This document shows positions 41,974 to 62,135 of a stretch of DNA of 64,000 nt, piece after piece. Source of the stretch: Bacillota bacterium (GTDB lineage: Bacteria; Bacillota; Clostridia; Christensenellales; CAG-138); NCBI GenBank assembly GCA_023455425.1, contig JAEYCM010000012.1:52545-116544 (forward strand). Reading direction: 5' to 3'. Every line of letters starts with the position of its first letter. The first letter of the stretch is position 1. Below the pieces are notes generated by a model. That model searched no databases and had not been told where the DNA came from. It saw only the letters and a list, made by a program, of their open reading frames with translations. Position numbers and translations under genes: made by a program.

Positions 41974-43194
41974 ATGAAGAATGTAAGAATTATACCCGTA
42001 ATACCTAAAGAGAATAAAAAGCTTAGAGTTGCAGCTTATTGTCGGGTTAGCACATCCGGACCGGAACAACTGCGCAGCCTTGAGATTCAGATAAAAGCCT
42101 ATACGAACATTATAAAAAGCCATCCCAACTGGCTTTATGCCGGTGTGTTTTACGACATCGAAAGTGGACTGCGGCGAAGTGGCAGAAGTGGACTGGACAA
42201 AATGCTGGGGAATGTGGCAAAGGGCAAAATCGATTACATTATCACCAAGTCAATCAGCAGGGTGTCGAGAGATACGCTTGAGGTTTTGAAGATTATAAGA
42301 TTCTTAAGAGAGCGAGGGATCAACATGCATTTTGAAAATGAGAAGCTGGATTCAATCGAGGCAGAAAAAGAATTTGAGATTACGCTGAGAGCTATGCTGG
42401 CGCAGGACGAAAGTCGGAATATCAGCGAGAATATTCAATGGGGAATTCAGCGCAAGTTTGAAAAAGGCGAGATTTATACGAAGTATAAGAATTTTACGGG
42501 ATACACTTGCGATGACGGTAAGATTGTCATTGTACCAGAACAGGCAGAAGTAGTTAGAAAAATCTTTGACTTATATTTACAAGGCCTGTCGTTGGGGCAA
42601 ATCAAGGCTTACCTGGAAGCCCAGGGGATTAAAACTGTAACGGGCAAGGAGATTTGGGATACAAAAACAATCCAGAGGATGTTGACCAATGAGAAATACA
42701 AAGGCGATACCATGCTTCAAAAGACCTTTACTGAGGATTTTATGACCGGTAAGAAAAGTAAGAATATCGGGCAGCGAAATAAGTATTATGTGAAAAACAG
42801 TCACCCCGCTATTGTTTCCGACGAAGTATTTGATAGGGTGCAGGAGGAAATGGCGAAGCGTGCAAGGCTTGTCAGCAATGAGAATGGTACGGTAGAAACC
42901 CGCGGGAGCAAATATAACGGAAAATATATATTGGGGAATTTGCTCGTATGCGGCGATTGTGGCGCATCTTATCGGAGAAGGACTGAACGCGGTAAGGTGG
43001 TCTGGAGATGTGCTACAAGGATCGAAAAGGGTAAAGATGCTTGCGCTACTTCTCCTACGATAAATGAAGCACAATTGAATGAACAACTGGCAGAGGCAGT
43101 ATGTGGCGGTGTCTATGATGAGGGGATAATTAGGAGCAAGGTCGATAAGATACAGATTTTTGAAAAATTTATTATAATAGCTGCAAAGATGTAG
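41974..43194 (+). CDS. Large serine recombinase (resolvase/invertase catalytic domain + recombinase domain + zinc ribbon)
   Basis: VAAYCRVSTSGPEQ (catalytic Ser), ...ITKSISRVSRDTLEVL..., recombinase domain, Zn ribbon CGDCGASYRRR...WRCATRIEKGKDAC. At 406 aa it is short for the family. Confidence 0.9.
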   Translation: MKNVRIIPVIPKENKKLRVAAYCRVSTSGPEQLRSLEIQIKAYTNIIKSHPNWLYAGVFYDIESGLRRSGRSGLDKMLGNVAKGKIDYIITKSISRVSRDTLEVLKIIRFLRERGINMHFENEKLDSIEAEKEFEITLRAMLAQDESRNISENIQWGIQRKFEKGEIYTKYKNFTGYTCDDGKIVIVPEQAEVVRKIFDLYLQGLSLGQIKAYLEAQGIKTVTGKEIWDTKTIQRMLTNEKYKGDTMLQKTFTEDFMTGKKSKNIGQRNKYYVKNSHPAIVSDEVFDRVQEEMAKRARLVSNENGTVETRGSKYNGKYILGNLLVCGDCGASYRRRTERGKVVWRCATRIEKGKDACATSPTINEAQLNEQLAEAVCGGVYDEGIIRSKVDKIQIFEKFIIIAAKM

Positions 43195-43467: not shown

Positions 43468-44163
43468 TTGGAGAAGATAGTTAATGCGATTTTATTTCTA
43501 AAAGATATCTACAATAGTATCTTTGGAGTAATATTTATAAGTATTGGTTTGCTACTGCTTTTTTCCTTAATGGTATATTGTAGATTAAAAAGAATGAATA
43601 AAACATATAATAAAAGATGGGATACTTATGTTGCGGCAGTGAAAAAAGAGGCATTACGGATGATTGCCGAATTCGTAGTAATCTCTATGCTATTGATATT
43701 AATACAAGATAGTTTTAATATAGATATTTTAGATTTCATAAGAAATGAAACCTGGAAACTAATTATCGGTTTCTGGTTCATATTTCATATAAAAAATGGG
43801 CGAAGCATCTACAAGTATGTAAATCGCGAATTGCTTTTAGATGAAATTGAAAAAGGGCAAAATCCAAGCCTGCAATTTGAGCTTATGATAAAACAATATC
43901 AAAATAATTATGACTTGGAACTTGAAAAACTTGGAATTTTGAAATCCTTAGCACCCGTTTCTTTAGTACCCCTAATAGCTGGATTTATATTGGAAAATAA
44001 GAAGATAAGTTTAAATGCCTATACCATTATCTTTTTTTGTATTTTGTTCCTGTATATATATGAACTTTGGAAATGCTATGATACGTTGAGATTTTGGAAA
44101 TCAAGAAAAAGAAAAGTTGAAGAAAGAATAATGAATTTGAAAGAAAAGTGCGCAGCGCATTGA
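43468..44163 (+). CDS. Multi-pass membrane protein, function unknown (very AT-rich)
   Basis: 231-aa ORF with ~5 hydrophobic helices and a basic C-terminus. TTG start after AAAAGGA; I recognise no family. Confidence 0.6.
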   Translation: MEKIVNAILFLKDIYNSIFGVIFISIGLLLLFSLMVYCRLKRMNKTYNKRWDTYVAAVKKEALRMIAEFVVISMLLILIQDSFNIDILDFIRNETWKLIIGFWFIFHIKNGRSIYKYVNRELLLDEIEKGQNPSLQFELMIKQYQNNYDLELEKLGILKSLAPVSLVPLIAGFILENKKISLNAYTIIFFCILFLYIYELWKCYDTLRFWKSRKRKVEERIMNLKEKCAAH

Positions 44164-44302
44164 CAAGGAACTATTACACGCAACTCGGGTGAGGTTGTAT
44201 GGTGCTGCGCAAGCCGGGGAGAGCATGGAAAGAAATCTGACGCCACTTCCCAATGATCAGTAATGAGCAAACCATAGAGTTTTTCTTTGTAAGCCTTGAA
44301 TA

Positions 44303-44669
44303 TTACGGAACTGGATTTTGAAACTGATCCATAAAGAATGGATAAATTTCGTCTGCAGCAAAATACTTTTCATGCCAAGCAAGAATAGTTCTTGTCATTT
44401 TTACTATGAAAATGTTGGAATATCTACTATAATAGCTCTTGTAAAGCAATACGGAAGGGCTTAAGAGCTGTATGGAGATTTCAATGGCAAATAGAAGAAA
44501 CAAGAAAAAAGTCTATTGCAGCTTGACCAACATTGCCTGTAAGGAATATGTTGATTCTCGGGAATATGTGATTCGGAGTTTGCTCTGAAACTATAGGTTG
44601 AAGTTTAGTAAAATGAGTGGGCAAGCAACCCATTCTATAAGGTGCAAGTATAAAAGCGAAATCTTCCAT
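44303..44669 (-). pseudogene. Possible frameshifted gene remnant (two overlapping minus-strand ORF pieces)
   Basis: Track ORFs 44481..44669 and 44303..44503 abut in different frames. No RBS and no recognisable family, so this is very tentative. Confidence 0.25.
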
Positions 44670-44851
44670 CTTTATGCAGTTGAATGATATGGCAACCTCT
44701 TTGGCAGGTTAAGCCATGCGAATTTATATTTATCCCCAAAAACCAAACAGATATCCTGTTTGATAACACTCACATAGGCCCACAAACACGCCAACCCCGC
44801 TTTCGTTGTAGAATAGTCAAGCATGATTTTTTCAGAGGAGAAGGAATTCCT

Positions 44852-47800
44852 ATGACAGATACCTCAAAGACCACCGGCCTTCCAAGTGAAGTATGCCTAA
44901 CACCGACATCTGCCCTAGGGCGAGTACATCTTAAAATTGAGCTTACTTCGGTTATCAACTATGCTTTGCAGCAAAACCGGATTCCTGTTATACGGGAAAT
45001 TCTGATTTGTAATAATAGTACCGATGATATAGAAAATGCTGTGGTGAAATTGCGCTGTGAACCAGAGTTTGTTTGCTCCGCACAGATGAATGTCGCATCG
45101 ATTCCGGCAGGTGCATCCTTTTCTCTCAGCGGATTTCAGCCACAGATCAACGCTTCCTTCTTGGCGGAACTGACCGAACGCATGATAGGCAGACTGGATA
45201 TTGCTTTAGAGGGTAACCAAGGTGAAGTTCTTGCCGCATGCCAATATGAAATTACCGCGCTCGCCTTTGACGAGTGGCATGGAACTGCTTTCTATCCCGA
45301 GTTACTCTGCGCATTTGTAACGCCAAACCACCCGGAGGCTATCAAGATTACAGCCCGCTCAGCACAGCTTTTGGGCAACTGGAGCGGCGATCCTTCACTA
45401 AACGCTTATCAGACCCAAGATCCTAATCGGGTGCTCATGCAGGCAGCGGCAGTTTACGGTGCTTTGCAGGAAGCCAATATTATTTACTCCGTACCGCCTG
45501 CCAGTTTTGAACGCATTGGGCAGCGGGTAAGACTTTGTGATGCGGTCATCCAGCAGAAACTGGGTACTTGTTTGGATTTAACGTTGTTCTATGCTACTTG
45601 CTTGGAAGCAATTGGCCTTCACCCGATTCTTTTGTTACAACAGGGACACATCTTTGCCGGTGTTTGGCTGGAGAACCGCTCGTTTTCGGAGACGGTTGAA
45701 AATGATCCTTCTTTAATTACCAAGCGTATTGCTGAGGGTGTGAACGAGATTGCGGTGGTAGAGTGTACCGCGCTGGTTGCAGGCAAAAATATGAGCTTCG
45801 ATGAAGCAATGGCTGCTGCTGTAAGCAAGCTTCGCGACCCCGATCCGCTGGAATACATTATCGATGTTTCCCGTTCCAGACTGAGTGGGATACGGCCGCT
45901 TCCCCTGCGTATTCAGAGTGAAACCGGATGGAAAATCGAAACGCAAAAAAGAAGTGAAAAGGAATTAACGCGCATTCCTGAATCACTCGGTGAGATTATC
46001 CATGTAGACGAAACCTCGACTAAAAAAACGTGGAGCAAAATGCTGCAATGGGAGCGTAAGCTGCTGGATTTAAGCCTGCGAAATACGCTCATCAATCTAA
46101 GATGGTCGCAAAGCGTTATCCCTATCCTCTGCGAATCATTATCGGATCTAGAGGATGCACTGGCAGACGGAGAGGAGTACGGAATCAGTCCCCGACCTTC
46201 TGAATGGGTACTGCCGGAGGAGCAGCGCCGCAGCATTGAACGTTTGACCGATCTAGGCGATTTCAGAGACCTAATAAAAGTAGAGTTTCAAAACAAGCGT
46301 CTGCGTTCATTTTTAAGCGAAGGTGAGCTTTCCCGTGCAATCGTTAACGTTTATCGCGCCTCCAAAAGCTCATTGGAAGAAAACGGGGCCAACACTCTGT
46401 ACCTTGCCATTGGTTTTCTTCGCTGGTATGAAACCCCGACCAGCCAAAAGCCGAGGTATGCGCCGCTGATCCTGTTGCCAATAGAAATTGTCCGCAAATC
46501 TGCGCTTAAAGGGTATGTAATTCGTATACGAGACGAAGAGCCGCAGATGAACATCACTCTGCTGCAGATGATAGCGCAGGATTTTGGCATACAGATTCAA
46601 GGGCTGGACCCGCTTCCTCTGGATGCAATGGGGATCGATCTGCGCACTGTATTTACCGTCATGCGCAAAGCGGTGATGAATCAACCGCGCTGGGATGTCA
46701 TCGGAGCCGCATTCCTTGGGATATTTTCTTTTTCCCAGTTTGTGATGTGGAACGATATTCGAAACCGTTCCGAGGATCTTCAAAAGAATAAAATTGTTCG
46801 CAGCCTGATGGACGGACGACTCTCTTGGCATGCACGAGAGTTGGAGAGCGACGAGCGGGTGCCCGAAGGTGACACGCTTCTGCCTATTCCGATGGATGCT
46901 TCACAGTTGCACGCCATCCGAGCGGCAGCAGAAGGCCAAAGTTTTGTGCTCCATGGACCTCCCGGCACGGGAAAATCTCAGACGATCACCGCAATAATTG
47001 CCAACGCGCTGGCTAAGGGAAAATCTGTCCTGTTCGTCGCAGAAAAAATGGCAGCATTGTCAGTGGTGCAGCAACGGCTGAAAAATATTGGCATTGGACC
47101 ATTCTGCCTTGAGCTACATTCCAACAAATCCAATAAGCGAGACGTTTTGAATCAACTAAATGAGGCTGCGCAGGTCGCAAAGCAGAATGTGCCGAGCGCC
47201 TGGCTAAAAAAAGCCGAGCAGACTGCGCAACTGCGAGGCGAGTTGGATGTTTACGCGCAGGCGTTGCATAAAGAACAAAAATGCGGCCTATCCCTATTTG
47301 CGATGATCGGCTCATATACGAATTATACCGAATGCTCGGAAACCATTGATTTTTCTCCAAAATTTGCCGAAAGCCTTGACGAAGACCGCATGCAGAAGCA
47401 GCAGATGATGCTGGATAGGCTGATTGCGGCCGCGCGCCTTATCGGCCATCCTTGCCATCATCCCCTGCGAAATGTAGGCAGATCTGTCTATACGCAGCAG
47501 ATCAAGAGCGAGCTACCGCAGAAGTTGGATGCGTATATGTCCGCGCTTGAAAAACTATCAGATGTCGGTATGCTTTTAACGCAAAAGCTGAAACAGCCGA
47601 CACCCCTTATATTTTCGGATTGGGAAAGGATTTACCAGATTGCCTGTCAGCTGCAGGTTTGGATACCGTTGCCCCGATACTGGGGTAGGGATTCGGACTG
47701 GACACGCACCTGTATGGATATTCAAGCAATGGCCTCCCATTTTGATGCGGCACGACGGCTCTATGGTGAGCTGTCCATCCACTGGGAGGAGGGTCTTTTT

Positions 47801-50707
47801 AACTTGGATGGGGCTATGCTCAAAAGCGAATGGACAAGCTCGCAGACCAAATGGTTTCTTCCTAAATTGCTGCAGCAAAGCAAGCTGAAGAAGGCTGTCA
47901 AGGTGTTTTGGAAAACGCCGGATCAAAGAATGCTCGCCGATTCGTTTTTCAAGGCCTTCTCCGACCTAGCCGAATATCAGTCAAATTATGCGGCGGGACA
48001 GGCGCTTTTCGGGCGATACGGTGCGGAGCTGGGAAGCTTATACAACGACGTCAAAACCGATTGGGAAAAAATACGGGCTTATGCCAATGATGCCAAGCAC
48101 AGTGACGCAGAGCTCAACGCGCTGACGGGGAATGATGATTTGCGTATTGCATTTGCGGGTGTAAAGGAGCTCTTTCCGATCATCACTGAATATATAGAGG
48201 CTTACGAGCAGATGTTTATGCCTAGGGATGACTTGCACGCACTTTTGGAAATTGTGCAGGATACGCAGCCTGACGGTGATTGGATTTCGATGCAGTTTGA
48301 CATGTGCAAGCAAATCAAAGCGCATTCGAACGTTCTGAAAGAATGGATGGTTTGGGTCGATTCTGTAAAAGAAGCTGATCTTCTTGGTATGATGCCATTG
48401 GTTGACGCTTACCGAAAGGGGCTGTCTCACGAAGCCGCCGTACCAGCTTATTATAAGGGACTCTATACTGCTCTGATCTATAAAGCCGTAGAGGAAAGTC
48501 CTGTGCTTAATAGTTTTTCCGGTGTGGTATTCCATGAAAAAATTCGCCAGTTTCAGCAGTTGGATGCAGAACTGACCGAACTGGCAAAAAGGGAAGTGTT
48601 TTACCGCCTTGCGTCCCAAGTTCCAAATTTCACACAGGAAGCATCACAGAAATCGGAAGTTGGTGTGCTGCAGCGCGCAATCCGAAGCGGCGGTCGAGGT
48701 GTTAGCATCCGCCGCCTGTTTGAGCAGATATCTAACCTGTTGCCTAGGCTTTGCCCCTGCATGCTAATGAGTCCTCTTTCTGCCGCACAATATCTCGACC
48801 CGAACCGAAAGCCATTTGACCTTGTCATCTTTGACGAAGCATCTCAAATGCCTACAGCCCGAGCCGTGGGTGCTTTGGCGCGGGGGGCCAATGCGATTAT
48901 TGTGGGTGACCCAAAGCAGATGCCGCCCACAAGCTTTTTTTCGGGCAACGCGCTAGATGAGGACAATTTGGAAACTGAGGATTTGGAGAGCATTTTGGAC
49001 GATACGCTGGCGTTGAACATGCCTCAGTCTCATTTGCTATGGCACTATCGAAGCCGTCATGAAAGCTTGATTGCTTTTAGTAATCATCACTTTTATGCGG
49101 ACAAGCTATACACCTTCCCTTCCATCAATGATCGGGAGTCGAAGGTGACGCTGGTGCCTATCGACGGTTTCTTTGACCGGGGAAAATCGCGGCAGAACCG
49201 CGCGGAGGCGGAGGCAATCGTAAGCGAACTGATCCGCCGCAGCCAGGATCCGGTTTGTATGGAGCAGAGCGTGGGTGTCGTCAGCTTCAACATCCAACAG
49301 CAAAATCTGATTGACGATCTGTTTACCGAGGCCTGCAAATCAAACTCTGAGTTGGAGCAATGGGCCTACGAGTCGACGGAGCCGATCTTCATTAAAAACC
49401 TGGAGAATGTTCAGGGAGATGAACGGGATGTCATCCTGTTTTCCATCGGCTATGGTCCGGATGCTACGGGCAAGACGTATATGAATTTTGGCCCCTTAAA
49501 CCGAGAGGGCGGCTGGCGGAGGCTCAATGTGGCCGTGTCCCGCGCACGGCAGGAAATGAAAGTCTTTTCTTCGATTCGGGCGGATCAGATCGATCTCGCG
49601 CGCACCGCCGCCGAGGGGGTTGTCGCACTGAAGGCATTTTTAGAATACGCTTCCGGTGCAGCCTTGACTAATAATGCCCAAAACCTTTTTAAAGCCGCAG
49701 ATGACAAAAATGGCGTGGCCATTATGCTTAAGCGTAGGCTGGAGCGAGAAGGATATCAGTCGCAGCTGCAGGTGGGGCATTCTAAATATAAAATTGACTT
49801 AGGTGTCATTGATCCGAAAAAACCAAGCCGATATTTGATGGGAATTCTGTTGGATGGAGAGGCGTATCAATCTGCCAAAACGACGAGAGACAGGGAGTTG
49901 TCCCAAATCAGCGTACTAAAAGGATTGGGATGGCGCATTCATCGGCTTTGGTCAGTGGACTGGTGGGACAACAGCGACAAAGAATTTGCTAAGATTATAG
50001 ACCTGCTGAAGGCACCTGTGTCCTGTGCGGATCCATTATTGCTCAAAACCGGTTTGCCGATGGATGGCGCTGCGCAACCCGTCCCAAACCAGAAGCTGGA
50101 GCATTCTCTTTACGAGGCAAGTATATTGTCGACATCATCCGCTCCCACGTCAGAGACCGCGTTGTATCAAGCAGCTACTTTGCCGGTACGGCCCATGACG
50201 CCGGACGAATACCTGCTCCCCCAAAAGGTCGGCCTGATCAAAAGCGCAATTCATACGATCCTTGAGCAGGAAGCGCCTATCAGCGAACCACTGTTGACCC
50301 GGCGTGTTGTACAGAGCTTTGGCATCTCTCGAGCAGGTTCGCGTATTCAGCAAAGAACAGCGGCGGTTCTTCGTAGCATGAATCTGCTCTGTACCCGTCA
50401 TGGTGACCAGACCTATTACTGGCTTAGTTCCCAGCATCCGGATACCTATTCCAGCTTTCGTGTTTCTGCTTCGGGTGTTCGGGAGGCTGGCGATATACCG
50501 GTACAGGAAATAGCTAACGCCGTCTGCGCTGCGCTTGAACGACAAATTGCAATGCCGAAGGATGATCTATTACGGGAAACAGCAAATCTACTGGGGTACA
50601 CTCGTTTGGGCAATAACGTTATCTCGTCGGTAACGGCAGGTATAGTGTATGCAGTGAAAACAAGGAAAATTGTGGAACAAAAAGACGATTACTATGTGTT
50701 GACATAA
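44852..50707 (+). CDS. 1,951-aa multidomain SF1 helicase-nuclease: transglutaminase-like N-domain, DUF4011-like region, Upf1/DNA2-like (AAA_11/AAA_12) helicase, DUF559/Vsr-like endonuclease fold, DUF3320-like C-terminus
   Basis: LGTCLDLTLFYATCLEAIGLHP...GHIFAGVW (Cys/His core). Walker A LHGPPGTGKSQT (46955-46978). VIFDEASQM, GDPKQMPPTSF, WHYRSRHESLI, NVQGDERDVILFSIGYG, RRLNVAVSRAR. Then GYQSQLQVGHSKYKIDLGVID...ILLDGEAYQSAKTTRDRE...GWRIHRLWSVDWW and PISEPLLTRRVVQSFGISRAGSRI. ATG 44852 after AGAGGAGAAGG. Confidence 0.9.
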   Translation: MTDTSKTTGLPSEVCLTPTSALGRVHLKIELTSVINYALQQNRIPVIREILICNNSTDDIENAVVKLRCEPEFVCSAQMNVASIPAGASFSLSGFQPQINASFLAELTERMIGRLDIALEGNQGEVLAACQYEITALAFDEWHGTAFYPELLCAFVTPNHPEAIKITARSAQLLGNWSGDPSLNAYQTQDPNRVLMQAAAVYGALQEANIIYSVPPASFERIGQRVRLCDAVIQQKLGTCLDLTLFYATCLEAIGLHPILLLQQGHIFAGVWLENRSFSETVENDPSLITKRIAEGVNEIAVVECTALVAGKNMSFDEAMAAAVSKLRDPDPLEYIIDVSRSRLSGIRPLPLRIQSETGWKIETQKRSEKELTRIPESLGEIIHVDETSTKKTWSKMLQWERKLLDLSLRNTLINLRWSQSVIPILCESLSDLEDALADGEEYGISPRPSEWVLPEEQRRSIERLTDLGDFRDLIKVEFQNKRLRSFLSEGELSRAIVNVYRASKSSLEENGANTLYLAIGFLRWYETPTSQKPRYAPLILLPIEIVRKSALKGYVIRIRDEEPQMNITLLQMIAQDFGIQIQGLDPLPLDAMGIDLRTVFTVMRKAVMNQPRWDVIGAAFLGIFSFSQFVMWNDIRNRSEDLQKNKIVRSLMDGRLSWHARELESDERVPEGDTLLPIPMDASQLHAIRAAAEGQSFVLHGPPGTGKSQTITAIIANALAKGKSVLFVAEKMAALSVVQQRLKNIGIGPFCLELHSNKSNKRDVLNQLNEAAQVAKQNVPSAWLKKAEQTAQLRGELDVYAQALHKEQKCGLSLFAMIGSYTNYTECSETIDFSPKFAESLDEDRMQKQQMMLDRLIAAARLIGHPCHHPLRNVGRSVYTQQIKSELPQKLDAYMSALEKLSDVGMLLTQKLKQPTPLIFSDWERIYQIACQLQVWIPLPRYWGRDSDWTRTCMDIQAMASHFDAARRLYGELSIHWEEGLFNLDGAMLKSEWTSSQTKWFLPKLLQQSKLKKAVKVFWKTPDQRMLADSFFKAFSDLAEYQSNYAAGQALFGRYGAELGSLYNDVKTDWEKIRAYANDAKHSDAELNALTGNDDLRIAFAGVKELFPIITEYIEAYEQMFMPRDDLHALLEIVQDTQPDGDWISMQFDMCKQIKAHSNVLKEWMVWVDSVKEADLLGMMPLVDAYRKGLSHEAAVPAYYKGLYTALIYKAVEESPVLNSFSGVVFHEKIRQFQQLDAELTELAKREVFYRLASQVPNFTQEASQKSEVGVLQRAIRSGGRGVSIRRLFEQISNLLPRLCPCMLMSPLSAAQYLDPNRKPFDLVIFDEASQMPTARAVGALARGANAIIVGDPKQMPPTSFFSGNALDEDNLETEDLESILDDTLALNMPQSHLLWHYRSRHESLIAFSNHHFYADKLYTFPSINDRESKVTLVPIDGFFDRGKSRQNRAEAEAIVSELIRRSQDPVCMEQSVGVVSFNIQQQNLIDDLFTEACKSNSELEQWAYESTEPIFIKNLENVQGDERDVILFSIGYGPDATGKTYMNFGPLNREGGWRRLNVAVSRARQEMKVFSSIRADQIDLARTAAEGVVALKAFLEYASGAALTNNAQNLFKAADDKNGVAIMLKRRLEREGYQSQLQVGHSKYKIDLGVIDPKKPSRYLMGILLDGEAYQSAKTTRDRELSQISVLKGLGWRIHRLWSVDWWDNSDKEFAKIIDLLKAPVSCADPLLLKTGLPMDGAAQPVPNQKLEHSLYEASILSTSSAPTSETALYQAATLPVRPMTPDEYLLPQKVGLIKSAIHTILEQEAPISEPLLTRRVVQSFGISRAGSRIQQRTAAVLRSMNLLCTRHGDQTYYWLSSQHPDTYSSFRVSASGVREAGDIPVQEIANAVCAALERQIAMPKDDLLRETANLLGYTRLGNNVISSVTAGIVYAVKTRKIVEQKDDYYVLT

Positions 50708-50746
50708 AATTATGTGTGCGAATCTATAAGCTAGAGGGAGCCTGCT

Positions 50747-52924
50747 ATGGGATTCTACTTAAGAAAATCAATAAGTTTTGGTGGCGTTCGGTTCGACTTT
50801 TCGAAATCTGGTATCGGCGCATCGGTTGGAGTAAAGGGTTTCCGTTTCGGAATGGGTCTACGAGGCAACTACGTGCATATGGGGCGAGGTGGCATCTATT
50901 ATCGCGCCGTACTCGGAGCAAAGAAAGGTAACGTACAACGTACGCAACCTGCTCGTCCTGAAGGCGAAAGGGATAAAGGCGATGGTTTGCTGTTCCAGGA
51001 AATTGAAAGCGGTGATATTTCCTTTATCATTGATTCATCTTCTCAAGAAATTGTAAATGAGATCAACGCTAAGTGTAAAAAGACACCATGTTGGCCTCTT
51101 GCAATCTTGTGTGCATTTATTCCGTCGGTGGGTATTCCTATCGCGATTATAGCTGCCATTTTAATTAATGTGCTCATCGACAAAAGACGAAAGACAACTA
51201 TTATCTTTTACGATATCGAGGAACAGGCAGAGCAGGAGATACAACAACTTTACAACGCTTTTGAGCAGCTGATGAATTGCAGTTTCGTATGGCACATTGC
51301 CTCTCAAGCAGCTGTGCAGGATAGAAAATATCATGCAGGCGCAAGCACAGTAGTCAGACGAACAAAAATCAAAATAGAATACAAGACTCCTCCTTACCTT
51401 AAAACGAATGTGAAGGTGCCTGCTATTCCTGTTGGAAAACAGATACTCTATTGCTTCCCCGATAGGATACTAATCTATGAGGGTAAACAAGTTGGTGGTA
51501 TTTCTTACGCAAACTTGTCTATTAGGCAGAGGGGGCAAAGATTCATCGAGGATGGGATTGTTCCGGAGGATGGAACAATTGTGGATCATACTTGGCGCTA
51601 TGTTAACAAGTCTGGCGGTCCAGATAAGCGATTCAAGGATAATCGAAAACTTCCCATTTTGATATATTCAGACATCTCTTTTCAGAGCGATACAGGGTTG
51701 AACGAGTTAATCGAATTATCTAAGCAGGATGTGGGCGTTGAACTAATACAGCAACTAGACAAATACAAAGCAAGCCCGTGGTGGAATGAAGAATTGGAGT
51801 CTTCTAAGGGCATCCAAATGCCAGCATCACAACCTCAACCGATATTGCTGCCCAAGCAAGTAAGTGCGGAAGCTGCGATGCCATCTATTGAAGTAATACC
51901 CCAAATCATTTCTTCAACGCCGAAAGATGTCATCCCTGCTGAGATACGGATAAAAGACGCCATCGCTAGTTCGCACGGATTATACCCCCATGAGGTGCTG
52001 GTACTTGATTATTCCCACTCATACTATACGGAAGGGAACCATTATCAAAGTTTCTGGTGGTATGGATACGGTGTGAGTAATGTTGACGCGCTTCTACGTT
52101 CCCTCCTCGACAGAGGATTTTTGCAGGTCGGCGATTTGCAGAGCGCTATTGAGAATGAAAATGCTGTGGTGCTAAAGGAAGAACTCAAAAAGTATGGCAG
52201 CAAAGTGAGTGGTAAAAAAGCGGAATTGGTACATCGGTTGATAAATGAGGTTTCGCATGACGAGCTGAGTGTTCGGTTTACAAAAAGAATGTACCAATTA
52301 ACAGAGCTTGGAAAGCGGGCGCTTGAAGAAGAAGCTTATGTACCTTACATCCATCGTCATCCGTTCGAAGGGTTAGATATCTGGTCGCTCAACAGAATTA
52401 TGTATACTCCGCCGTACATGTCATTTCGAGATAAAATTTTGGATTATCTTTATCAACGTGGCACAGAACATATCTCCGCTGGGAATTTTGGGCTTTATAG
52501 AAACTGTCGTTACAGTATGTCAGTACTTTTGCAAGAAGAGAAACGGTATATGGATGCGCTCGGTATGTTGGCGGAAGTTGTTTTTTACGATTTGAGTGGG
52601 CTTAGCAATAATTACGATCCGAAATATCTTGACATTTATGCTGAAAGTTATTTTCCATACCAGGAATCGAGCGCAACAACGGCGCCCGGCATAATAGATG
52701 CGATTTTGCAATGCCAAAAGGAACTTGGCATTGTTGAAGATGAGTTAAAATCTGAGTTGCTTAATCATATGAGGAGACTAAGTGCGCCGTTGCATCTTTT
52801 CACCCCTGAAGAATGCGTAGACATTGTGCTTGGGGAGGTTTGTGAGAACACTGAAGCACTGACAAAAATATACTCAAAAGCAAAACGGCGATTCAAACAA
52901 AAGTATCCGAGCCTCAAGTGTTAA
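50747..52924 (+). CDS. DUF4236-N-terminal membrane protein with a C-terminal SAP-motif region
   Basis: MGFYLRKSISFGGVRFDFSKSGIGASVGVKGFRFGMGLRGNYVHMGRGGIYYR (DUF4236-like). TM segment WPLAILCAFIPSVGIPIAIIAAILINVLI. SAP-like LKEELKKYGSKVSGKKAELVHRLINEV. Starts 39 nt after the helicase stop. Confidence 0.85.
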   Translation: MGFYLRKSISFGGVRFDFSKSGIGASVGVKGFRFGMGLRGNYVHMGRGGIYYRAVLGAKKGNVQRTQPARPEGERDKGDGLLFQEIESGDISFIIDSSSQEIVNEINAKCKKTPCWPLAILCAFIPSVGIPIAIIAAILINVLIDKRRKTTIIFYDIEEQAEQEIQQLYNAFEQLMNCSFVWHIASQAAVQDRKYHAGASTVVRRTKIKIEYKTPPYLKTNVKVPAIPVGKQILYCFPDRILIYEGKQVGGISYANLSIRQRGQRFIEDGIVPEDGTIVDHTWRYVNKSGGPDKRFKDNRKLPILIYSDISFQSDTGLNELIELSKQDVGVELIQQLDKYKASPWWNEELESSKGIQMPASQPQPILLPKQVSAEAAMPSIEVIPQIISSTPKDVIPAEIRIKDAIASSHGLYPHEVLVLDYSHSYYTEGNHYQSFWWYGYGVSNVDALLRSLLDRGFLQVGDLQSAIENENAVVLKEELKKYGSKVSGKKAELVHRLINEVSHDELSVRFTKRMYQLTELGKRALEEEAYVPYIHRHPFEGLDIWSLNRIMYTPPYMSFRDKILDYLYQRGTEHISAGNFGLYRNCRYSMSVLLQEEKRYMDALGMLAEVVFYDLSGLSNNYDPKYLDIYAESYFPYQESSATTAPGIIDAILQCQKELGIVEDELKSELLNHMRRLSAPLHLFTPEECVDIVLGEVCENTEALTKIYSKAKRRFKQKYPSLKC

Positions 52925-53194: not shown

Positions 53195-53204
53195 TACAAT
53201 TCAA

Positions 53205-53241
53205 TCAGACGACGAAGTTTTAATAAAAACTCGTCGTCTGA
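53205..53241 (+). other. Long intercistronic hairpin between the peptide ORF and the rSAM gene
   Basis: Perfect 11-bp arms TCAGACGACGA / TCGTCGTCTGA, extended by GTTTT/AAAAC. No T-run follows, so it looks like an RNA-stability/attenuation element rather than a full terminator. Confidence 0.7.
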
Positions 53242-53260
53242 TTAACTAAGGAGAAATTGT

Positions 53261-54775
53261 ATGTTTTTCAAACAAAAATCTAATATTTTATTCAGAAACT
53301 ATGAGTCCTTTGGATATATAACGGACAATAGGAATTTCGGATATAAACAAGCAGATGATAACAAAAATGACATCGGGGATAAAATTCTATCGGAAAGTGG
53401 AGCTGTGTTTTTTTCAGTTTTAAGCAGAAAGCCTCAAACCCTTGACGTTCTTGCTCAAAAAATAAATAAGAAATTTACAGATGTTGATATCGAAACAATA
53501 AAGAATGATGCCAGAGACTTTTACTTTATGCTTGAACAAAATGGATTTATTGTATCTGGCGAAACAATGCAGGAGTGCGAAAAAAAAGATACAAAGTTTT
53601 CGTACAAAATACTTGAACCCGAGATAATAAAAAATGACTATTCTCCGACTATTATGCGGCCTGAAAGATCCACACAGGAATTTTTAGAAGAATATTTTAA
53701 TGACAAGCCTCAACTTACAAATTTACATATAGAAATTACAAGCAAGTGCAATGAAAGATGCGTACATTGCTATATTCCGCATGAGAACAAAGCAAGTGAT
53801 ATCGAACCTGATTTATTTTATGATGTTTTAAAGCAATGTAAAGCTATGAGATTATTACATTTGACAATAAGCGGTGGTGAACCACTATTGCACAAAAGTT
53901 TTTGTGATTTTTTAAGAAAATGTAAGGAATACGATTTTTCAGTAAATATTCTTAGCAACTTAACTTTACTTAATGATGAAATAATCAAAGCAATGAAAGT
54001 AAACCCTCTTTTAGGGGTTCAAGTCTCACTATATTCAATGGATTCCAATATTCACGATGGAATAACCCAAATGAAAGGAAGCTTTGAAAAGACAAAGAAC
54101 GCAATTTTGCAGCTTATTGAAAACGATATACCTTTACAAATAAGCTGTCCAATAATGAAACAAAATAAAAACTGCTATGGGGACGTTAAAAATTGGGCAA
54201 GAACACATAATGTTCAAGTTAGAGATGACTATGTCATCATAGCACAATATAATCATACAACACAAAATCTGAGTAACCGTCTATCCATTGATGAAATCAA
54301 AGAAGTAATTAAAGAGATTGTTGTGAATGATACAAGCTATTGGGAGAGAGCGGAAAGAGATGCAGAGAGTAAAAAAGATCTTACACCAAACGATTATATT
54401 TGTAGTGTTTGTCATTCATCCATTTGCATAGCAGAGAATGGAAATGTATATCCATGTGCTGGCTGGCAGGATTATAATATCGGTAATATGAAAGAAGCTT
54501 CTCTCAAAGATATTTGGAATAATTCTGAAAAAATACAATATCTCAGAGGCTTAAGAAGAAAAGATTTTCCTAAATGTATTCAATGCCATGATAAAGAGTT
54601 TTGTACCATGTGTATGGTTAGAAATGCAAATGAAGACCCCTTGGGAGATCCATTAGCAGTTAATGAGCATTTTTGTAATATTGCAAAACTGAATAGAAAT
54701 ATGATGCTTGAATGGAAAGAAAAACTTAAAAGTTCTTTGAATAAAGTTATTCCATATGCAAACAACCAACGATAA
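53261..54775 (+). CDS. Radical SAM / SPASM-domain peptide-modifying enzyme with an N-terminal PqqD-like RRE
   Basis: RRE-like ILSESGAVFFSVLSRKPQTLDVLAQKINKKF...ARDFYFMLEQNGFIV. Cluster motif SKCNERCVHCY (CxxxCxxC). GGEPLL. SPASM Cys pattern CSVCHSSICIAENGNVYPCAG...CIQCHDKEFCTMC...FC. AAGGAGA RBS. Confidence 0.9.
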   Translation: MFFKQKSNILFRNYESFGYITDNRNFGYKQADDNKNDIGDKILSESGAVFFSVLSRKPQTLDVLAQKINKKFTDVDIETIKNDARDFYFMLEQNGFIVSGETMQECEKKDTKFSYKILEPEIIKNDYSPTIMRPERSTQEFLEEYFNDKPQLTNLHIEITSKCNERCVHCYIPHENKASDIEPDLFYDVLKQCKAMRLLHLTISGGEPLLHKSFCDFLRKCKEYDFSVNILSNLTLLNDEIIKAMKVNPLLGVQVSLYSMDSNIHDGITQMKGSFEKTKNAILQLIENDIPLQISCPIMKQNKNCYGDVKNWARTHNVQVRDDYVIIAQYNHTTQNLSNRLSIDEIKEVIKEIVVNDTSYWERAERDAESKKDLTPNDYICSVCHSSICIAENGNVYPCAGWQDYNIGNMKEASLKDIWNNSEKIQYLRGLRRKDFPKCIQCHDKEFCTMCMVRNANEDPLGDPLAVNEHFCNIAKLNRNMMLEWKEKLKSSLNKVIPYANNQR

Positions 54776-54811: not shown

Positions 54812-57800
54812 ATGCTTGAAATAAACTGGAACATTTTCAAAGCAAAATTTAATAATAAAGAACAAAAAACGTTCGAGAACTTAAGTTACCTTCTATTTTG
54901 TGACGAGTTTAATAAGGATACAGGAATCTTTCGCTATAAAAATCAGGCAGGAATAGAAACAGAGCCAATCGAGCATGATGGAAAAATCATTGGATTCCAA
55001 GCTAAATTTTATGAGACTAAAATCAGCGATAACATACCGGATATTAAGAATTCTATCAAGAAGGCGAAAGAAAAAAATCCAAATATAAATAAAGTATTAT
55101 TTTATATTAATCAAGAGTTTTCTGAGAGTACAACCATAGGGCAAAAAGAACCCCGATACAAAATTATTATTGAGGAGTTTGCGGCAAGTAAAGGCATCGA
55201 AATCGAGTGGAGAGTACCCAGCTATTTTGAAAGACAACTGGCGCTTGAGAAAAACATTTCCTTTGGAAAGCATTTTTTTGCTATAGATAAAGGTACCTTT
55301 GACCTCGTGCAGGACTTGATTCAGCATACGGAATCTATTCTTGCCCCTATCCGTTCAGACATAGAATATCAGGGCAATACAATAAAGCTGGACAGATCAG
55401 CCATCTTGGCCGGTTTGCAGTCTGCTTTAACCCTAACCGAACCTCCAGTTGTCATTGTGAGCGGAAAAGGCGGCGTCGGAAAGACCGCGGTAATTAAAGA
55501 TTTTTATACTCAACTCAAAGAATCGATACCGATTATTATGTTTAAGGCTGCAGAGTTTAATGTCTCTAATATTAATTGCCTTTTTAATGTTTATGGAGAT
55601 TTCACATTAGCTGATTTTATATCTGAGTATCAGCGTATAGAAGAAAAATATATTGTCATTGATTCCGCTGAAAAATTATCCGACATAGAAGATCAGAATC
55701 CATTTCAAGAGTTTTTATCTAGACTAATCAACAACAAATGGAAGGTAATATTTACAACAAGGTATAGCTATCTTGATGACCTAAAATTTCTGTTAATGGA
55801 ATTGTACCGGCTATCGTTTACTTCACAAAATATTGAAGAAATCAGTGAAAAAGAACTTGCGGAGCTATCCAGCAAGTATTCTTTCAACCTTCCGCAAAAT
55901 GCAAGACTACTTGAACTGTTGCAGAACCCTTTTTATCTCGCGGAATATTTGAGTGAATATAAAAATATAAAAGCCTCAGCAAGCCTTTCGGATTTTAGAA
56001 ATCTTCTATGGAATAAACATATCGTAAAGTCGGCTTACCGAAAAAATAATATTCATATCAAGAGAGAAGCTTGCTTTTTACAGATTGCTCGGAAGAGAGC
56101 CGATGAAGGACAGTTTTTTGTAAACATAGAGAACTATGATAATGAAACGCTACAATCTCTTGAAGCGGATGAAATAATCAGATATGATGCAAATGCAGGC
56201 GGATACTTTATTACTCATGATATTTATGAAGAATGGGCGCTAGGGAAAATAATCGAACGGAACTACGCTTCATTATTAACTTATGAGAGCTTCTTTGCAA
56301 TATTGGGAAGCAGTTTGCCTATTCGTAGGGCTTTCAGAAACTGGTTGTCCGAAAAGCTATTTATCAATTATGGAGATATTAAGTTATTAATCGAACACTC
56401 CTTTGCCAATGACGCGGTAGCGTCATTCTGGAAAGATGAACTGATTGTTTCTGTTTTGCTGTCGGAATACTCGCAAGTATTTTTCCAATTATTCAAAACA
56501 AAACTTATGGAGGACGAACAGGCACTTTTGGTACGGGTTGTTTTTTTGCTTAGAATTGCCTGCAAAGAGATTGCCGATAGTTTTTTGCCCGTGATAGTTA
56601 CTCAACCAAAAGGCAGCGGATGGTCATATGTAATCGATTTCATCCATAGTCACAAAGAAACTCTTGGTAACGAACATATATCAACGATTCTTCCCATGCT
56701 GGCTGATTGGAATGATAAAAATACTCATGGAAATACAACAAAGAAGGCAAGTCAGATTGCTCTGTTCTACTATGAAAACATAGTAGGCCAAGGAGGATTT
56801 GGGTATAGATCCGAAGGGAAAATAAAGGAACCACTCATCAGGGTTATACTACAGGGCTCAGCAGAAATTAGAGAAGAACTGAAACATATTTTCGATGGAA
56901 TACTTACTAGAAACGAACCTAATCATAAAGATAGAGACTATGAACTGGTCGAAGTAATACTGACCTCAATCACCGATAACTATGAAGTCATAAAAATACT
57001 TCCTGACTATGTTATTAAGCTGGCGGAACTATTTTGGGTATATAAGCCGAAAAAAGATAATAAAGTTTTGAACATTAGGTCATCGGAACTTGAAGAAAAT
57101 TTTGGCCTCTCCCATAGACCTGATGATTGGTACTTTCCTCCAAGCGCTTTGCAAACGCCATTTTACCAGCTTTTAAGGCATGATACCAATATGACGGTAA
57201 ATTTTATTTTAAAATTTATGAATATGGCAGTCGAAAATTATGTAAAGTCTGAATTCAAAGACGAAGTGGAAGAAGTTAAAGTTTTTCTCGATAGCGACTG
57301 TCAGATTAATCAATACGTCAGTAATAGGTTATGGAATACCTACAGAGGCACTCAGGTTTCCACACATCTTCTGGAATCGATGCATATGGCCTTGGAAAAA
57401 TGGCTGCTGGATTACGCCAAATATGGAAAGACTGAGCATCTGGAAGAATGGTGTTATTATCTTATAAAAAATTCTTGCTCAGCCTCCATCACTGCTGTAG
57501 TCGCCAGCGCTGTCATGGCCTATCCATCTAAGCTGTTCACTATTGCAAAGATTCTTTTTCGAACCAAGGAATTTTTCTATTATGATACCAAGAGAATAGT
57601 ACTAGACGAATCCGCTAAGTTAACCTATTCTATTGGACACGGCTTAAATTTTAAACGTGATATATATTCGGACGAAAGAATCAAGACCTGCGAAGACAAA
57701 CACAGGAAGAAAAGATTTGAACAATTGGCCGTAGAATATCAGTTCTTTAGGTCGGAAAACGTTAGTGCCGAAGAAGCGGAAGTAAGGCAAAAGGCCTTAT

Positions 57801-59548
57801 GGGAAATATTTGATGTCTATTATAAAGAACTAGAGGGAAAGCCTGAAGATACTGAAGACAACCAAATATGGAGATTGTGCCTGGCAAGAATGGATCGAAG
57901 AAAAATGAATCCGGAATTAGAACAAACAGAGGAAGGAATTTCAATTAACTTTAACCCACAGCTTGAGCCGGAATTAAAAAAATATAGCGATGAGGCTTTA
58001 CAGGAATATAACGACGCAAATAAGTATATACCTCTATACTTATGGTCCAGATACAGATTCGCTAACGAAAAGGGGAAATATAGCCAGTATCAGCAATACG
58101 AAAATAATCCGCGTTTAGTAGTCATAGAACTAAGAGAGATTATGCAAGCTTTAAAAATTGGATCTCCAGAAGATTTTCGATTATTTAATCGGTCTATCCC
58201 GGCCTATGCCTGCGCAGTCTTGGTCAGGGATTTTAGCAATGAGTTAAGTCGGGAAGAAATAGAATTTTGTAAAGATATACTTATAGAATATTCCGCATCG
58301 CCGTTTCATGCGAGTCGCTATGTATATCAAGCTTTAGACGGAATAGAGCCCGCCATTAGTTCTTTATCTTACCTACTTAAATTTTTTTCTACAGAAAGGG
58401 AAGAGTTCGAAGGTATTAAAGGCCTGATGTTATTCTTGCTTTTTGTGCATGGAAAGATTCCTGAATTTACCACTCGAGCCATCTTGCAAAATTTATGGGA
58501 TATCAGTTTTGAAGATGCGCATTCCCTCTTTTTAGGATACATGTTCCTCAAGCCAAAATACGACAAGTTAGCGAAGAAATTGCAAGAAGATAATTATAAG
58601 AAACATATTTATGAAATTTCCGATAATCAAATTCTTGAGGTGTTTGGCGAGCAATACGAAAGTGAAATCAAAAAGATTATTTCGAATGATATTAAGTATG
58701 TCGATATTCCAAATGCACAAAACAAGAACTTGAGAATGTTGACCCGGGCATTTGAGTCGTTGCCACCAGGCACAAAGCATCCAGAACATATTAATTTTGT
58801 TTCAGAGATATTTCCGATCTTCGCCCAGAGAGTTTTTAAACGCGACAGGCATAACGATGACGAAGAAAAATTTGACTATACAATAAAAAACGAATTTCTA
58901 GATAAGTTTGCTGCCTTTGTCTTAACCGCAGATAAAGATATGATAGAAACATATCTTCAGCCGTTTATTGAAAACTTTAAAGTATCGGATGATACGGTGC
59001 GGTTCTTTCAATCTTTTATTTTTGCTGAAGATAGATTGAACAGATACGAAGAATTTTGGCATACATGGCATCTATTTTATGGAAAAATTAAGGATATCTG
59101 CACAGCGAAAAGTTATTATCATGATACCAAAGAAACTATTTATAATTATCTACTGGCATGGCCATATTGGAAGAACACTGCACGAGAATGGCACTCTTTA
59201 AAAGAACGAGAGAAAATTTTTTATAAAAAGGCCTCCGAGGATATGGGCCATTTCCCGCCCGTATTATATTCTATATCTAAAGTCCTTAACGATATCGGGA
59301 GCAACTTCATAGAAGACGGGATATTATGGCTGAGTGAAATAATAAACAAGAATAATAATTTGCTGACTGAGGAGCTTGAAGTAAATACCATTTATTATCT
59401 TGAATGCATCGCACGTAAATACATTCTTGCGAACCGTCAAAAAACCAAAACAATGCCGCAGATGAAAAAGGCACTCATTAGTATTTTGAACTTTTTGGTG
59501 GAGAGAGGCTCGGCGACTGGGTATTTATTACGTGAAAATATTTTATAA
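54812..59548 (+). CDS. 1,578-aa STAND-like P-loop NTPase with an N-terminal PD-(D/E)xK-like (Mrr/Cap4-like) nuclease domain and a ~1,100-aa helical-repeat C-terminus
   Basis: N-terminus FENLSYLLFCDEF...GIETEPIEHDGKIIGFQAKFY (acidic residues plus a QxK triad). Walker A VIVSGKGGVGKTAV (55463-55486). Walker B-like KYIVIDSAEKL. The rest is long and alpha-helical in appearance. AGGAGA RBS, 36 nt after the rSAM stop. Confidence 0.85.
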   Translation: MLEINWNIFKAKFNNKEQKTFENLSYLLFCDEFNKDTGIFRYKNQAGIETEPIEHDGKIIGFQAKFYETKISDNIPDIKNSIKKAKEKNPNINKVLFYINQEFSESTTIGQKEPRYKIIIEEFAASKGIEIEWRVPSYFERQLALEKNISFGKHFFAIDKGTFDLVQDLIQHTESILAPIRSDIEYQGNTIKLDRSAILAGLQSALTLTEPPVVIVSGKGGVGKTAVIKDFYTQLKESIPIIMFKAAEFNVSNINCLFNVYGDFTLADFISEYQRIEEKYIVIDSAEKLSDIEDQNPFQEFLSRLINNKWKVIFTTRYSYLDDLKFLLMELYRLSFTSQNIEEISEKELAELSSKYSFNLPQNARLLELLQNPFYLAEYLSEYKNIKASASLSDFRNLLWNKHIVKSAYRKNNIHIKREACFLQIARKRADEGQFFVNIENYDNETLQSLEADEIIRYDANAGGYFITHDIYEEWALGKIIERNYASLLTYESFFAILGSSLPIRRAFRNWLSEKLFINYGDIKLLIEHSFANDAVASFWKDELIVSVLLSEYSQVFFQLFKTKLMEDEQALLVRVVFLLRIACKEIADSFLPVIVTQPKGSGWSYVIDFIHSHKETLGNEHISTILPMLADWNDKNTHGNTTKKASQIALFYYENIVGQGGFGYRSEGKIKEPLIRVILQGSAEIREELKHIFDGILTRNEPNHKDRDYELVEVILTSITDNYEVIKILPDYVIKLAELFWVYKPKKDNKVLNIRSSELEENFGLSHRPDDWYFPPSALQTPFYQLLRHDTNMTVNFILKFMNMAVENYVKSEFKDEVEEVKVFLDSDCQINQYVSNRLWNTYRGTQVSTHLLESMHMALEKWLLDYAKYGKTEHLEEWCYYLIKNSCSASITAVVASAVMAYPSKLFTIAKILFRTKEFFYYDTKRIVLDESAKLTYSIGHGLNFKRDIYSDERIKTCEDKHRKKRFEQLAVEYQFFRSENVSAEEAEVRQKALWEIFDVYYKELEGKPEDTEDNQIWRLCLARMDRRKMNPELEQTEEGISINFNPQLEPELKKYSDEALQEYNDANKYIPLYLWSRYRFANEKGKYSQYQQYENNPRLVVIELREIMQALKIGSPEDFRLFNRSIPAYACAVLVRDFSNELSREEIEFCKDILIEYSASPFHASRYVYQALDGIEPAISSLSYLLKFFSTEREEFEGIKGLMLFLLFVHGKIPEFTTRAILQNLWDISFEDAHSLFLGYMFLKPKYDKLAKKLQEDNYKKHIYEISDNQILEVFGEQYESEIKKIISNDIKYVDIPNAQNKNLRMLTRAFESLPPGTKHPEHINFVSEIFPIFAQRVFKRDRHNDDEEKFDYTIKNEFLDKFAAFVLTADKDMIETYLQPFIENFKVSDDTVRFFQSFIFAEDRLNRYEEFWHTWHLFYGKIKDICTAKSYYHDTKETIYNYLLAWPYWKNTAREWHSLKEREKIFYKKASEDMGHFPPVLYSISKVLNDIGSNFIEDGILWLSEIINKNNNLLTEELEVNTIYYLECIARKYILANRQKTKTMPQMKKALISILNFLVERGSATGYLLRENIL

Positions 59549-60806: not shown

Positions 60807-61388
60807 ATGGGCGTTCGTGAAGAACAAAGAGAAAAGCGGCGGGAAGAAATTCTTGCGGCCGGACTTGATCTGTTTATCCGCAAGGGATATGCCGCAACAA
60901 AAATCAGCGATATTGCAGAGCGTGTCGGTATGAGTGTGGGGCTTTTGTTTCATTATTTTGAATCGAAAGAAAAGCTGTATGAAGAGCTGATAAAAGTCGG
61001 TATTTCAGCTCCAATGAGCGTTATGGATTCCCCCGGTACAGAGCCGCTGCAGCTTTTTGAGCGCGCCGCAGAACGGATTTTTTATTATATAAAAGCCAAA
61101 CCGTTTGCCGCAAAAATGTTTGTGCTGATGAGTCAGGCTTTTTATAACGAAGCGGCGCCGCAAAGTATCAAAGAGTTGTTATCAAACTTTGATATTTACG
61201 CGCTGACCACCCGGTCAATTCAACAAGGTCAGGCAAACGGCACAATTCGCGACGGTGATCCATACGCACTGGCAATTGCTTATTGGTGCGCCATCCAGGG
61301 CATCGCAGAGTGGATGGCACTAAATCCCGATGCTCCCTGTCCGGAGAGCAATTGGATTACAGATATTATCAGGAGGAAATCCGAATGA
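60807..61388 (+). CDS. TetR/AcrR-family transcriptional regulator
   Basis: N-terminal HTH EILAAGLDLFIRKGYAATKISDIAERVGMSVGLLFHYFESKEKLY. Confidence 0.9.
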   Translation: MGVREEQREKRREEILAAGLDLFIRKGYAATKISDIAERVGMSVGLLFHYFESKEKLYEELIKVGISAPMSVMDSPGTEPLQLFERAAERIFYYIKAKPFAAKMFVLMSQAFYNEAAPQSIKELLSNFDIYALTTRSIQQGQANGTIRDGDPYALAIAYWCAIQGIAEWMALNPDAPCPESNWITDIIRRKSE

Positions 61389-61464
61389 AAAAAGTACTTA
61401 TTGTGGGTGCGGGGAATATTCAGCTGCTTAAATTTGCGAAGTGAGATAGTAGCTTCGGTTAAAA

Positions 61465-62037: not shown

Positions 62038-62135
62038 CATCGAACAGGATACCTTAGATGCATCCAAAACCCATATGACTATTCAAATCATAGTCAAATA
62101 GAACCGTTGATTAATTATATAAAGAGGATAAAGCA

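Follow-up and report, generated by a model that had tools for sequence, protein, structure and literature searches.

Does the gene that directly follows a very large helicase-nuclease gene in a Clostridia genome belong to the same antiphage system, or do the two merely share an island? The question is raised by the window, the whole stretch of 64,000 nt analysed here (Bacillota bacterium, CAG-138; contig JAEYCM010000012.1, positions 52,545 to 116,544), in which a gene for a helicase-nuclease of 1,951 aa (44852..50707, plus strand) and a gene for a 725-aa protein with DUF4236 and SAP domains (50747..52924, plus strand; hereafter, the partner) lie 39 nt apart on one strand. The original prediction, whose open reading frame (ORF) coordinates and 39-nt gap agree with ours, had taken them for an unnamed two-gene module. 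Our analysis indicates that the helicase-nuclease is, as judged by profile comparison, a member of ProA, an already named single-polypeptide antiphage family related to Hhe, and that the partner is, on balance, probably a facultative accessory of ProA and not a core component. On this reading, the locus combines a known system with a facultative accessory that is as yet undescribed.

Family and architecture of the helicase-nuclease

The helicase-nuclease passed the NCBIfam equivalog model NF058533, “anti-phage protein ProA,” with 2038.9 bits against a cut-off of 1500, and the alignment ran end to end (helicase residues 36-1918 on profile positions 1-1903 of 1903). The window protein has the same order of parts as ProA, namely an N-terminal domain, DUF4011, a split superfamily 1 (SF1) helicase, MTES_1575, and DUF3320. 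The PADLOC single-gene candidate PDC-S37 (PDLC05009) was also matched (E=0, 1190.8 bits), with helicase residues 395-1944 aligned to profile positions 8-1541 of 1550. Over these residues, the window protein is the same as PDC-S37, but the profile lacks the first ~390 residues that the window protein has. The proteins of three loci (L035, L046, and L059) match the window helicase only from residue ~380-395. A literature search in full text for the name ProA returned only proline-biosynthesis or viral “ProA,” and searches for “PDC-S37” and “DUF4236” returned nothing useful.

Hhe has the same overall design as the window protein, with a similar length, DUF4011, an Upf1-like motor, and a Vsr-like nuclease. 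Gao et al. in 2020 reportedly described it as a single gene combining a DUF4011 helicase with a Vsr endonuclease. However, the window protein scored 777.5 bits, in two stretches, with the NCBIfam model NF042953, under the equivalog cut-off of 2000, and matched only part of the PADLOC profile PDLC02194 (E 1.9e-167), which places it outside Hhe and makes Hhe a sister family. The experiments on Hhe concern the E. coli protein. This single gene gives E. coli protection from lambda, T3, T7, and PhiV-1, and the nuclease mutation E1731A abolishes defence (10.1101/2022.06.16.496414). Hhe is apparently triggered by several T7 DNA-metabolism (class II) genes, and one Bas63 gene is toxic only when Hhe is present (10.1101/2024.10.10.617714).

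Two other defence systems have the COG1112/Upf1-like core in common with the window protein. MkoA/MkoC of Mokosh matched at E~1e-27, in the C-terminal half of the helicase only (aa ~1317-1576), but the window protein has neither the PLD nuclease (Pfam) nor the domain order of Mokosh. No Nhi model was found among the PADLOC matches of the window protein.

More than 100 homologues share 51-77% identity with the helicase over 98-100% of its length and have the same Pfam architecture. A search of one-genome-per-species contigs yielded at least 593 relatives, patchily distributed across phyla, with hosts including Clostridia, Bacteroidota, Paenibacillus, Verrucomicrobiota, and Planctomycetota. Taken alone, the helicase is one more member of a named antiphage family. 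The original prediction had regarded it as an unnamed engine, set apart by a DUF559-type nuclease and a long N-terminal extension, and none of these points was sustained: the family is already ProA in NCBIfam (as an equivalog) and PDC-S37 in PADLOC, a Vsr-type nuclease is usual in Hhe and ProA, and the ProA model takes in the extension, which is conserved in >100 homologues.

The longest helicase ORF opens at an upstream ATG at 44684 and would encode 2,007 aa. Translation from the ATG at 44852, which is preceded by a putative ribosome-binding site, GAGGAGAAGG, gives a product of 1,951 aa, which is the length of the nearest homologue, P0122 (77% identity, 100% coverage). The N-terminal region (aa 23-365; 44918..45946, plus strand) consists of a beta-sandwich (aa 25-136) and an alpha/beta domain, modelled by AlphaFold with a predicted local distance difference test (pLDDT) score of ~85-94. 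In the alpha/beta domain, C240, H266, and D285 do not vary among 30 homologues and have a transglutaminase-like spacing. A Foldseek search of the PDB with the N-terminal region placed factor XIII, TG2, and TG3 among the top matches, at E~1e-3 over only ~118 columns, which may be the sandwich alone. DUF4011 follows (aa 403-573; 46058..46570, plus strand; Pfam E 5.9e-47), in a part of the structure model that is of low confidence.

The helicase core is split. Its N-terminal half (Pfam AAA_11, aa 681-803; 46892..47260, plus strand) carries the Walker A motif GPPGTGKS at 702-709, and its C-terminal half (48791..49570, plus strand) carries DEAS at 1328-1331, AAA_12 at 1382-1573, and VAVSRAR at 1560-1566. 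Between the halves lies an insert of ~500 aa without a family match (aa 804-1310); a Pfam search at E<=5 with the isolated N-terminus and a 530-aa insert returned no match. All three motifs, Walker A, DEAS, and VAVSRAR, are intact and do not vary among 18-30 homologues, in agreement with the Upf1-like SF1 core that had been read from Walker A to VSRAR. The nuclease domain (MTES_1575, a Vsr-like PD-(D/E)xK nuclease with a restriction-endonuclease fold; aa 1628-1718; 49733..50005, plus strand; Pfam E 1.3e-24) contains D1649, D1668, and E1682, all invariant in the homologue alignment. The Vsr-like fold originally assigned to it stands, but DUF559 is not the best model, as MTES_1575 scores best; the two models represent Vsr-like PD-(D/E)xK families, and the distant relatives match DUF559 as well. 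The tail is indeed DUF3320 (aa 1785-1834; 50204..50353, plus strand; Pfam E 8.1e-12), as had been proposed.

The nearest solved structures found by sequence are the Upf1-like SF1B helicases IGHMBP2 (aa 680-743) and Sen1 (aa 1315-1576). A core so similar to Upf1, IGHMBP2, and Sen1 might suggest a housekeeping enzyme of DNA repair or RNA quality control, and in P. aeruginosa a hotspot is bordered by a conserved core gene encoding DUF4011 (PMC10250203); we nevertheless consider a housekeeping role highly improbable, since the protein passes a curated antiphage model, lies in an island of low guanine-plus-cytosine (GC) content with Avs4 and a recombinase, and belongs to a family with a patchy phylum distribution whose neighbourhoods vary over 80 loci.

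The partner and the recurrence of the pairing

The partner is a fusion of two modules that are also found singly. The N-module (aa 1-~345) comprises a DUF4236 head, a hydrophobic segment, and a beta-rich domain. The head (aa 3-53; 50753..50905, plus strand; Pfam E 3.6e-11) consists of Gly/Arg-rich beta strands and has low pLDDT. The hydrophobic segment of 29 residues (aa ~114-143; 51086..51175, plus strand), read from the sequence and modelled as helices 116-124 and 130-149 with a break, is likely to form a membrane anchor or hairpin. The conserved beta-rich domain (aa ~150-345; 51194..51781, plus strand) has pLDDT >90 and near-invariant D239, E268, D275, N287, K288, D293, and R295 in a 62-sequence alignment. 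Searching Pfam at E<=5 with this domain in isolation returned no match. A “PD...ExK” stretch at aa 238-247 of the N-module was considered as a PD-(D/E)xK nuclease and rejected, because its residues are not spaced as in such a nuclease and E245 and K247 vary across the family.

The C-module (aa ~394-725; 51926..52921, plus strand), recognised from Foldseek and from standalone homologues, combines SAP with a TPR-like helical domain and is modelled as nearly all-helical to the C-terminus; the mean pLDDT of the whole partner model is 83.5. The SAP motif (aa 475-500; nt 52169-52246) scored 25.3 bits against a cut-off of 23.9, barely above the gathering score. Both DUF4236 and SAP were thus found in Pfam, as first assigned. 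The best PDB match of the C-module in Foldseek is the SAP/TPR region of FAN1 (4ry3, E 6.5e-4 over 306 columns; also 4ric). The resemblance to FAN1, a protein with SAP, TPR, and VRR-NUC, is confined to this region: the superposition has a root-mean-square deviation of 14-15 Å and an identity of 12-14%, and neither VRR_NUC nor another nuclease domain was found in the partner with Pfam. Solved structures searched by sequence with the partner gave no match.

Each module has a family of its own. That of the N-module is very large, with 1,192 representatives at E<=1e-30 (representatives at 50% identity); most are proteins of 350-400 aa, and others are extended by TerB, TerB_N/TerB_C, SH3, TPR, DnaJ, GYF, or FtsK-gamma. 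The standalone form of the C-module is a “SAP domain-containing protein” of 383-385 aa, common in Firmicutes and <=70% identical to the module of the partner. No PADLOC or NCBIfam model matched the partner, and the DUF4236/SAP protein belongs to no named system in PADLOC, NCBIfam, or the literature; to this extent, the pairing is unnamed, as had been stated.

The ProA model describes a single protein; a DUF4236-SAP gene follows in the window and at one other locus, L001. There, the gap is 52 nt, and the partner (P0002) is 75% but the helicase only 55% identical to that of the window. A recent duplication as the source of the two pairs was rejected, since their junction DNA has diverged. A variant with a different DNA-binding domain was found in three metagenome contigs as a three-gene cassette (L137:3495-10979, L141:2094-9593, and L167:3466-10978). 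Gene 1 encodes an SF1 helicase of ~1,500 aa with an MTES_1575/DUF559 nuclease, a distant ProA/PDC-S37 relative that matches ProA at E 9e-61 and has ~25% identity to the window helicase. After 13 nt, gene 2 encodes a protein of ~510 aa that joins the DUF4236 N-module to an FtsK-gamma DNA-binding domain, and gene 3 encodes a SpoVK/CbbX-like AAA+ ATPase of 457-480 aa. The L137 and L167 helicases are only 63% identical, indicating that the cassette was retained despite genuine divergence. PADLOC and NCBIfam have no models for DUF4236 proteins or for the three-gene cassette. In L137, the cassette is followed by a TOTE-type AEP primase-helicase.

In the Faecousia locus L009, a distant protein with the SAP module only lies 68 nt 3' of a ProA homologue of 2,128 aa. 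The order in this locus (L009:5395-12895) is the ProA homologue, the SAP-module protein of 348 aa, and a Fic-like protein, and the homologue is one of a ProA sub-family (~2,120-2,170 aa) with an extra N-terminal DUF4145 of ~190 aa (PF13643). Tight co-directional adjacency of helicase and partner therefore recurs with SAP in the window and L001, with FtsK-gamma in L137, L141, and L167, and with the SAP module alone in L009. We favour the partner as a facultative accessory because helicases of one superfamily recur upstream, co-directionally and at 13-68 nt, in at least 2-3 independent lineages. Chance shuffling of island genes fits poorly, because the adjacency recurs with different DNA-binding domains on the DUF4236 protein. 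A facultative functional link between helicase and partner is thus plausible.

Several findings weigh against such a link. From the helicase side, we collected 80 loci of ProA relatives with their flanks and searched all six-frame ORFs with hidden Markov models (HMMs) of both modules; 56-68 of the 80 carry enough downstream sequence to be informative. Many metagenome contigs are short. The N-module was found in none of the 80 loci and the C-module in one, L009, and no neighbour is conserved across these loci, which come from many phyla. The nearest relatives of the window helicase have no partner: P0122 (77% identity) is followed by sugar-transport genes, P0130 (68%) is followed by unrelated genes, and no partner module was found at L007 (66%). 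From the partner side, co-occurrence was assessed with degenerate DNA motif and ORF-size scans of ~80 loci, not HMM searches, and the divergent L137-type helicases escaped the first two motif scans. Four full-length partner lineages were found, two of which are paired with ProA (the window and P0002 in L001). In L093 and L094 (partner identity 70%), the 466-516 nt upstream contain stops in all three frames and no helicase, and the Desulfitobacterium copy in L003 (62%) has no helicase nearby. Among ~49 N-module loci with enough upstream sequence, a degenerate motif-VI scan found a ProA-type helicase upstream in four (L137, L141, L167, and the P0002 contig), all with N-module proteins that have a DNA-binding C-terminus; the low number speaks against an obligate pair, whereas the restriction to such variants speaks for a link. 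Both modules occur mostly singly, in neighbourhoods of mobile or defence type. Finally, the GC content of helicase and partner differs by ~8 points in the window and by ~6 points in L001.

These observations would be expected if the two genes were independent neighbours, with ProA acting alone, the DUF4236-SAP protein being separate island cargo, possibly a defence or exclusion factor of its own, and the adjacency resulting from shuffling. The closest kin of each gene are unpaired, both modules are common singly beside unrelated defence genes, and the databases treat the helicase as self-sufficient, PADLOC listing PDC-S37 as a single gene and NCBIfam naming ProA as a single protein. In 78 of the 80 related loci, the helicase gene indeed stands alone. 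We regard this explanation as the main alternative and a real possibility, to be held with less than even confidence: it has to account for tight co-directional adjacency in lineages as far apart as the window and L001, the FtsK-gamma cassettes, and L009, with different DNA-binding domains, gaps of 13-68 nt, and one helicase superfamily, which is hard to obtain by chance, and for the presence of the N-module within Shango-like helicase systems as well.

Almost no ProA locus carries the partner; therefore, ProA works without it, and the partner is not a core component. Rare adjacency in other genomes had been named at the outset as telling against a two-gene system, and with no N-module and one C-module in 80 loci and the closest kin unpaired, an obligate pair is abandoned. 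Of the claim that the system is distinguished by a partner 39 nt downstream, the association itself survives, as it recurs in L001 and in the FtsK-gamma variant, but its obligate character does not.

The neighbours of standalone modules include AbiE, TIR, a HEPN/GmrSD/methylase group, SIR2-HerA, a serine recombinase like that of the window, and prophage tail genes, and one such locus lies beside a SWI2/SNF2 helicase. In another locus (L169:2486-9041), genes for a Tubulin_2 protein of 915 aa and a family-less protein of 918 aa lie directly upstream of the DUF4236 gene on the same strand.

Some of these contexts suggest that the partner could be a phage or mobile-element gene that travels with the island and has a non-defence or counter-defence role, for instance as a moron, a factor for DNA entry or exclusion, or a regulator restraining the helicase-nuclease. 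In L104 (L104:4957-13960), a DUF4236 N-module gene (7977-9101) lies between the tail-tube and tape-measure genes, inside a prophage tail module; a SAP-module homologue, P0032, is fused to Phage_Mu_F; SAP proteins of viral metagenome contigs are structural relatives of the C-module (E 2e-12), and DUF4236 proteins also occur in such contigs. Against this, 50,697 deposited phage genomes yielded only two weak partial N-module matches, distant fragments in two Microcystis phages, and most contexts are chromosomal islands with defence genes. We consider a phage-derived role of this kind unlikely.

The fusion of the N-module to other domains provides a further comparison. In Shango-like operons (L092:4173-10410 and L178:6435-12874), gene 1 encodes an N-module-TerB_N-TerB_C protein of 920-977 aa and is followed by genes for a BrxC/D-like ATPase and a DEAD/ResIII helicase; ~16 clusters of N-module-TerB fusions were found among the partner homologues (P0008-P0023). 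Shango, whose TerB-like protein, ATPase, and helicase are called SngA, SngB, and SngC, has been validated as a defence system (PMC10250203). The parallel is that, as in the window, a helicase has beside it a non-enzymatic protein that is probably membrane-associated, and the N-modules are <=61% identical. However, the window has no TerB_N/TerB_C, no BrxC/D-like ATPase, and no adjacent superfamily 2 (SF2) helicase, and its helicase is an SF1 enzyme with its own nuclease, unlike the SF2 helicase of Shango. Three forms of the N-module are thus seen with helicases: the SAP form with ProA, the FtsK-gamma form in the three-gene cassette, and the TerB_N/TerB_C form in Shango. They raise the possibility, which we put forward only tentatively, that the DUF4236 N-module is a general membrane-associated partner or sensor repeatedly recruited by helicase-based immune systems.

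The island and its other genes

The two genes lie in a low-GC mosaic stretch of ~21 kb (~41.9-62.9 kb of the window), in which GC falls at ~42000 and returns to 0.56 at ~63000. GC is 0.49-0.50 in the helicase gene, 0.42 in the partner gene, 0.55-0.60 in the host, and 0.33-0.38 in the radical SAM and Avs4 genes. The pair is therefore intermediate, as the original prediction had estimated, but does not share a single composition, given the gap of ~8 points between its genes. In order, the stretch contains genes for a serine recombinase, a hydrophobic protein, ProA, the partner, a PqqD-radical SAM-SPASM protein, Avs4, and a TetR regulator with membrane proteins, and it is a defence island on a mobile element. 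The proposal of an acquired variable island with a defence-type helicase-nuclease is borne out by Avs4, the recombinase, and the mosaic GC.

The serine recombinase at the left edge (406 aa; 41974..43194, plus strand) has the Pfam domains Resolvase, Recombinase, and Zn_ribbon_recom, and is 51% identical, over its full length, to a 408-aa recombinase preceding the DUF4236 gene in L173 (L173:6125-7351). Serine recombinases of ~407 aa thus head differing defence cargo, which is ProA, the partner, and Avs4 in the window, and a DUF4236 protein, DUF4062, and SIR2 and HerA-like genes in L173. Recombinase fragments were also seen upstream of ProA in L001, L004, and L005. The next gene (43468..44163, plus strand; GC 0.34) encodes a hydrophobic protein of 231 aa without a Pfam, PADLOC, or NCBIfam match, and is separated from ProA by ~690 nt of low-GC, apparently non-coding DNA (44164-44851).

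Downstream of the partner, a gap of 336 nt separates its stop from the radical SAM gene and contains an inverted repeat (53203..53243; arms of 20 nt, 90% complementary, 1-nt spacer), which might serve the pair as a terminator or act as an operator. A promoter and terminator scan predicted no terminator in the 39-nt gap; the promoter and terminator counts in the region did not exceed those in shuffled sequence, so the scan is uninformative on operon structure.

The radical SAM gene (53261..54775, plus strand) is a neighbour outside the pair. It encodes a 504-aa protein with PqqD-like, radical SAM, and SPASM domains in Pfam, for which all NCBIfam models scored below cut-off, and stops 36 nt ahead of Avs4; both genes are of low GC. 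In L006, L092, L173, and L174, too, radical SAM genes lie close to a DUF4236, ProA, or Shango-like gene, and one adjoins a DUF4011 gene at P. aeruginosa cDHS1 (PMC10250203). The recurrence of such neighbours may be a coincidence. Avs4 (AVAST type 4; 54812..59548, plus strand) is full-length and constitutes the second defence system of the island (PADLOC E=0, 2000.8 bits; NCBIfam NF041815, 2059.3 bits against a cut-off of 1500). The right part of the island (60807-62606; GC 0.39-0.44) encodes a regulator of the TetR family together with two or three small membrane proteins. Attachment-site repeats and tRNA genes were sought at the island ends, and none was convincing.

A possible mechanism and its significance

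The family assignment, domains, motifs, and adjacency patterns described above were computed here; every statement on the mechanism of the partner is what we infer. The Upf1-like SF1 motor of ProA would load on the DNA of the phage or on intermediates of its replication or processing, and the C-terminal Vsr-like PD-(D/E)xK nuclease would then cut. The beta-sandwich and putatively transglutaminase-like domain, DUF4011, and DUF3320 may serve as sensing or regulatory parts. The partner would be a membrane-tethered DNA-binding adaptor, with the N-module as the anchor and the FAN1-like SAP/helical half as the DNA-binding part, and it might bring the helicase-nuclease to foreign DNA that is entering or replicating, or gate its activity there.

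The value of this locus is as a lead on the DUF4236 N-module and Firmicutes SAP-module families, which are recurrent in defence islands. Proteins with these modules stand beside, or are fused into, several helicase-based systems, namely ProA, the short ProA-like cassette, and Shango. The lead offers a concrete idea of what these proteins may do and might shed light on the localisation or gating of single-protein helicase-nucleases, among them ProA and Hhe, and it draws attention to the three-gene cassette with DUF4236-FtsK_gamma, which present defence-finding tools leave unannotated. If the N-module is indeed a recruited partner of such systems, the window would be one instance of an undescribed “membrane adaptor + helicase-nuclease” class of defence.

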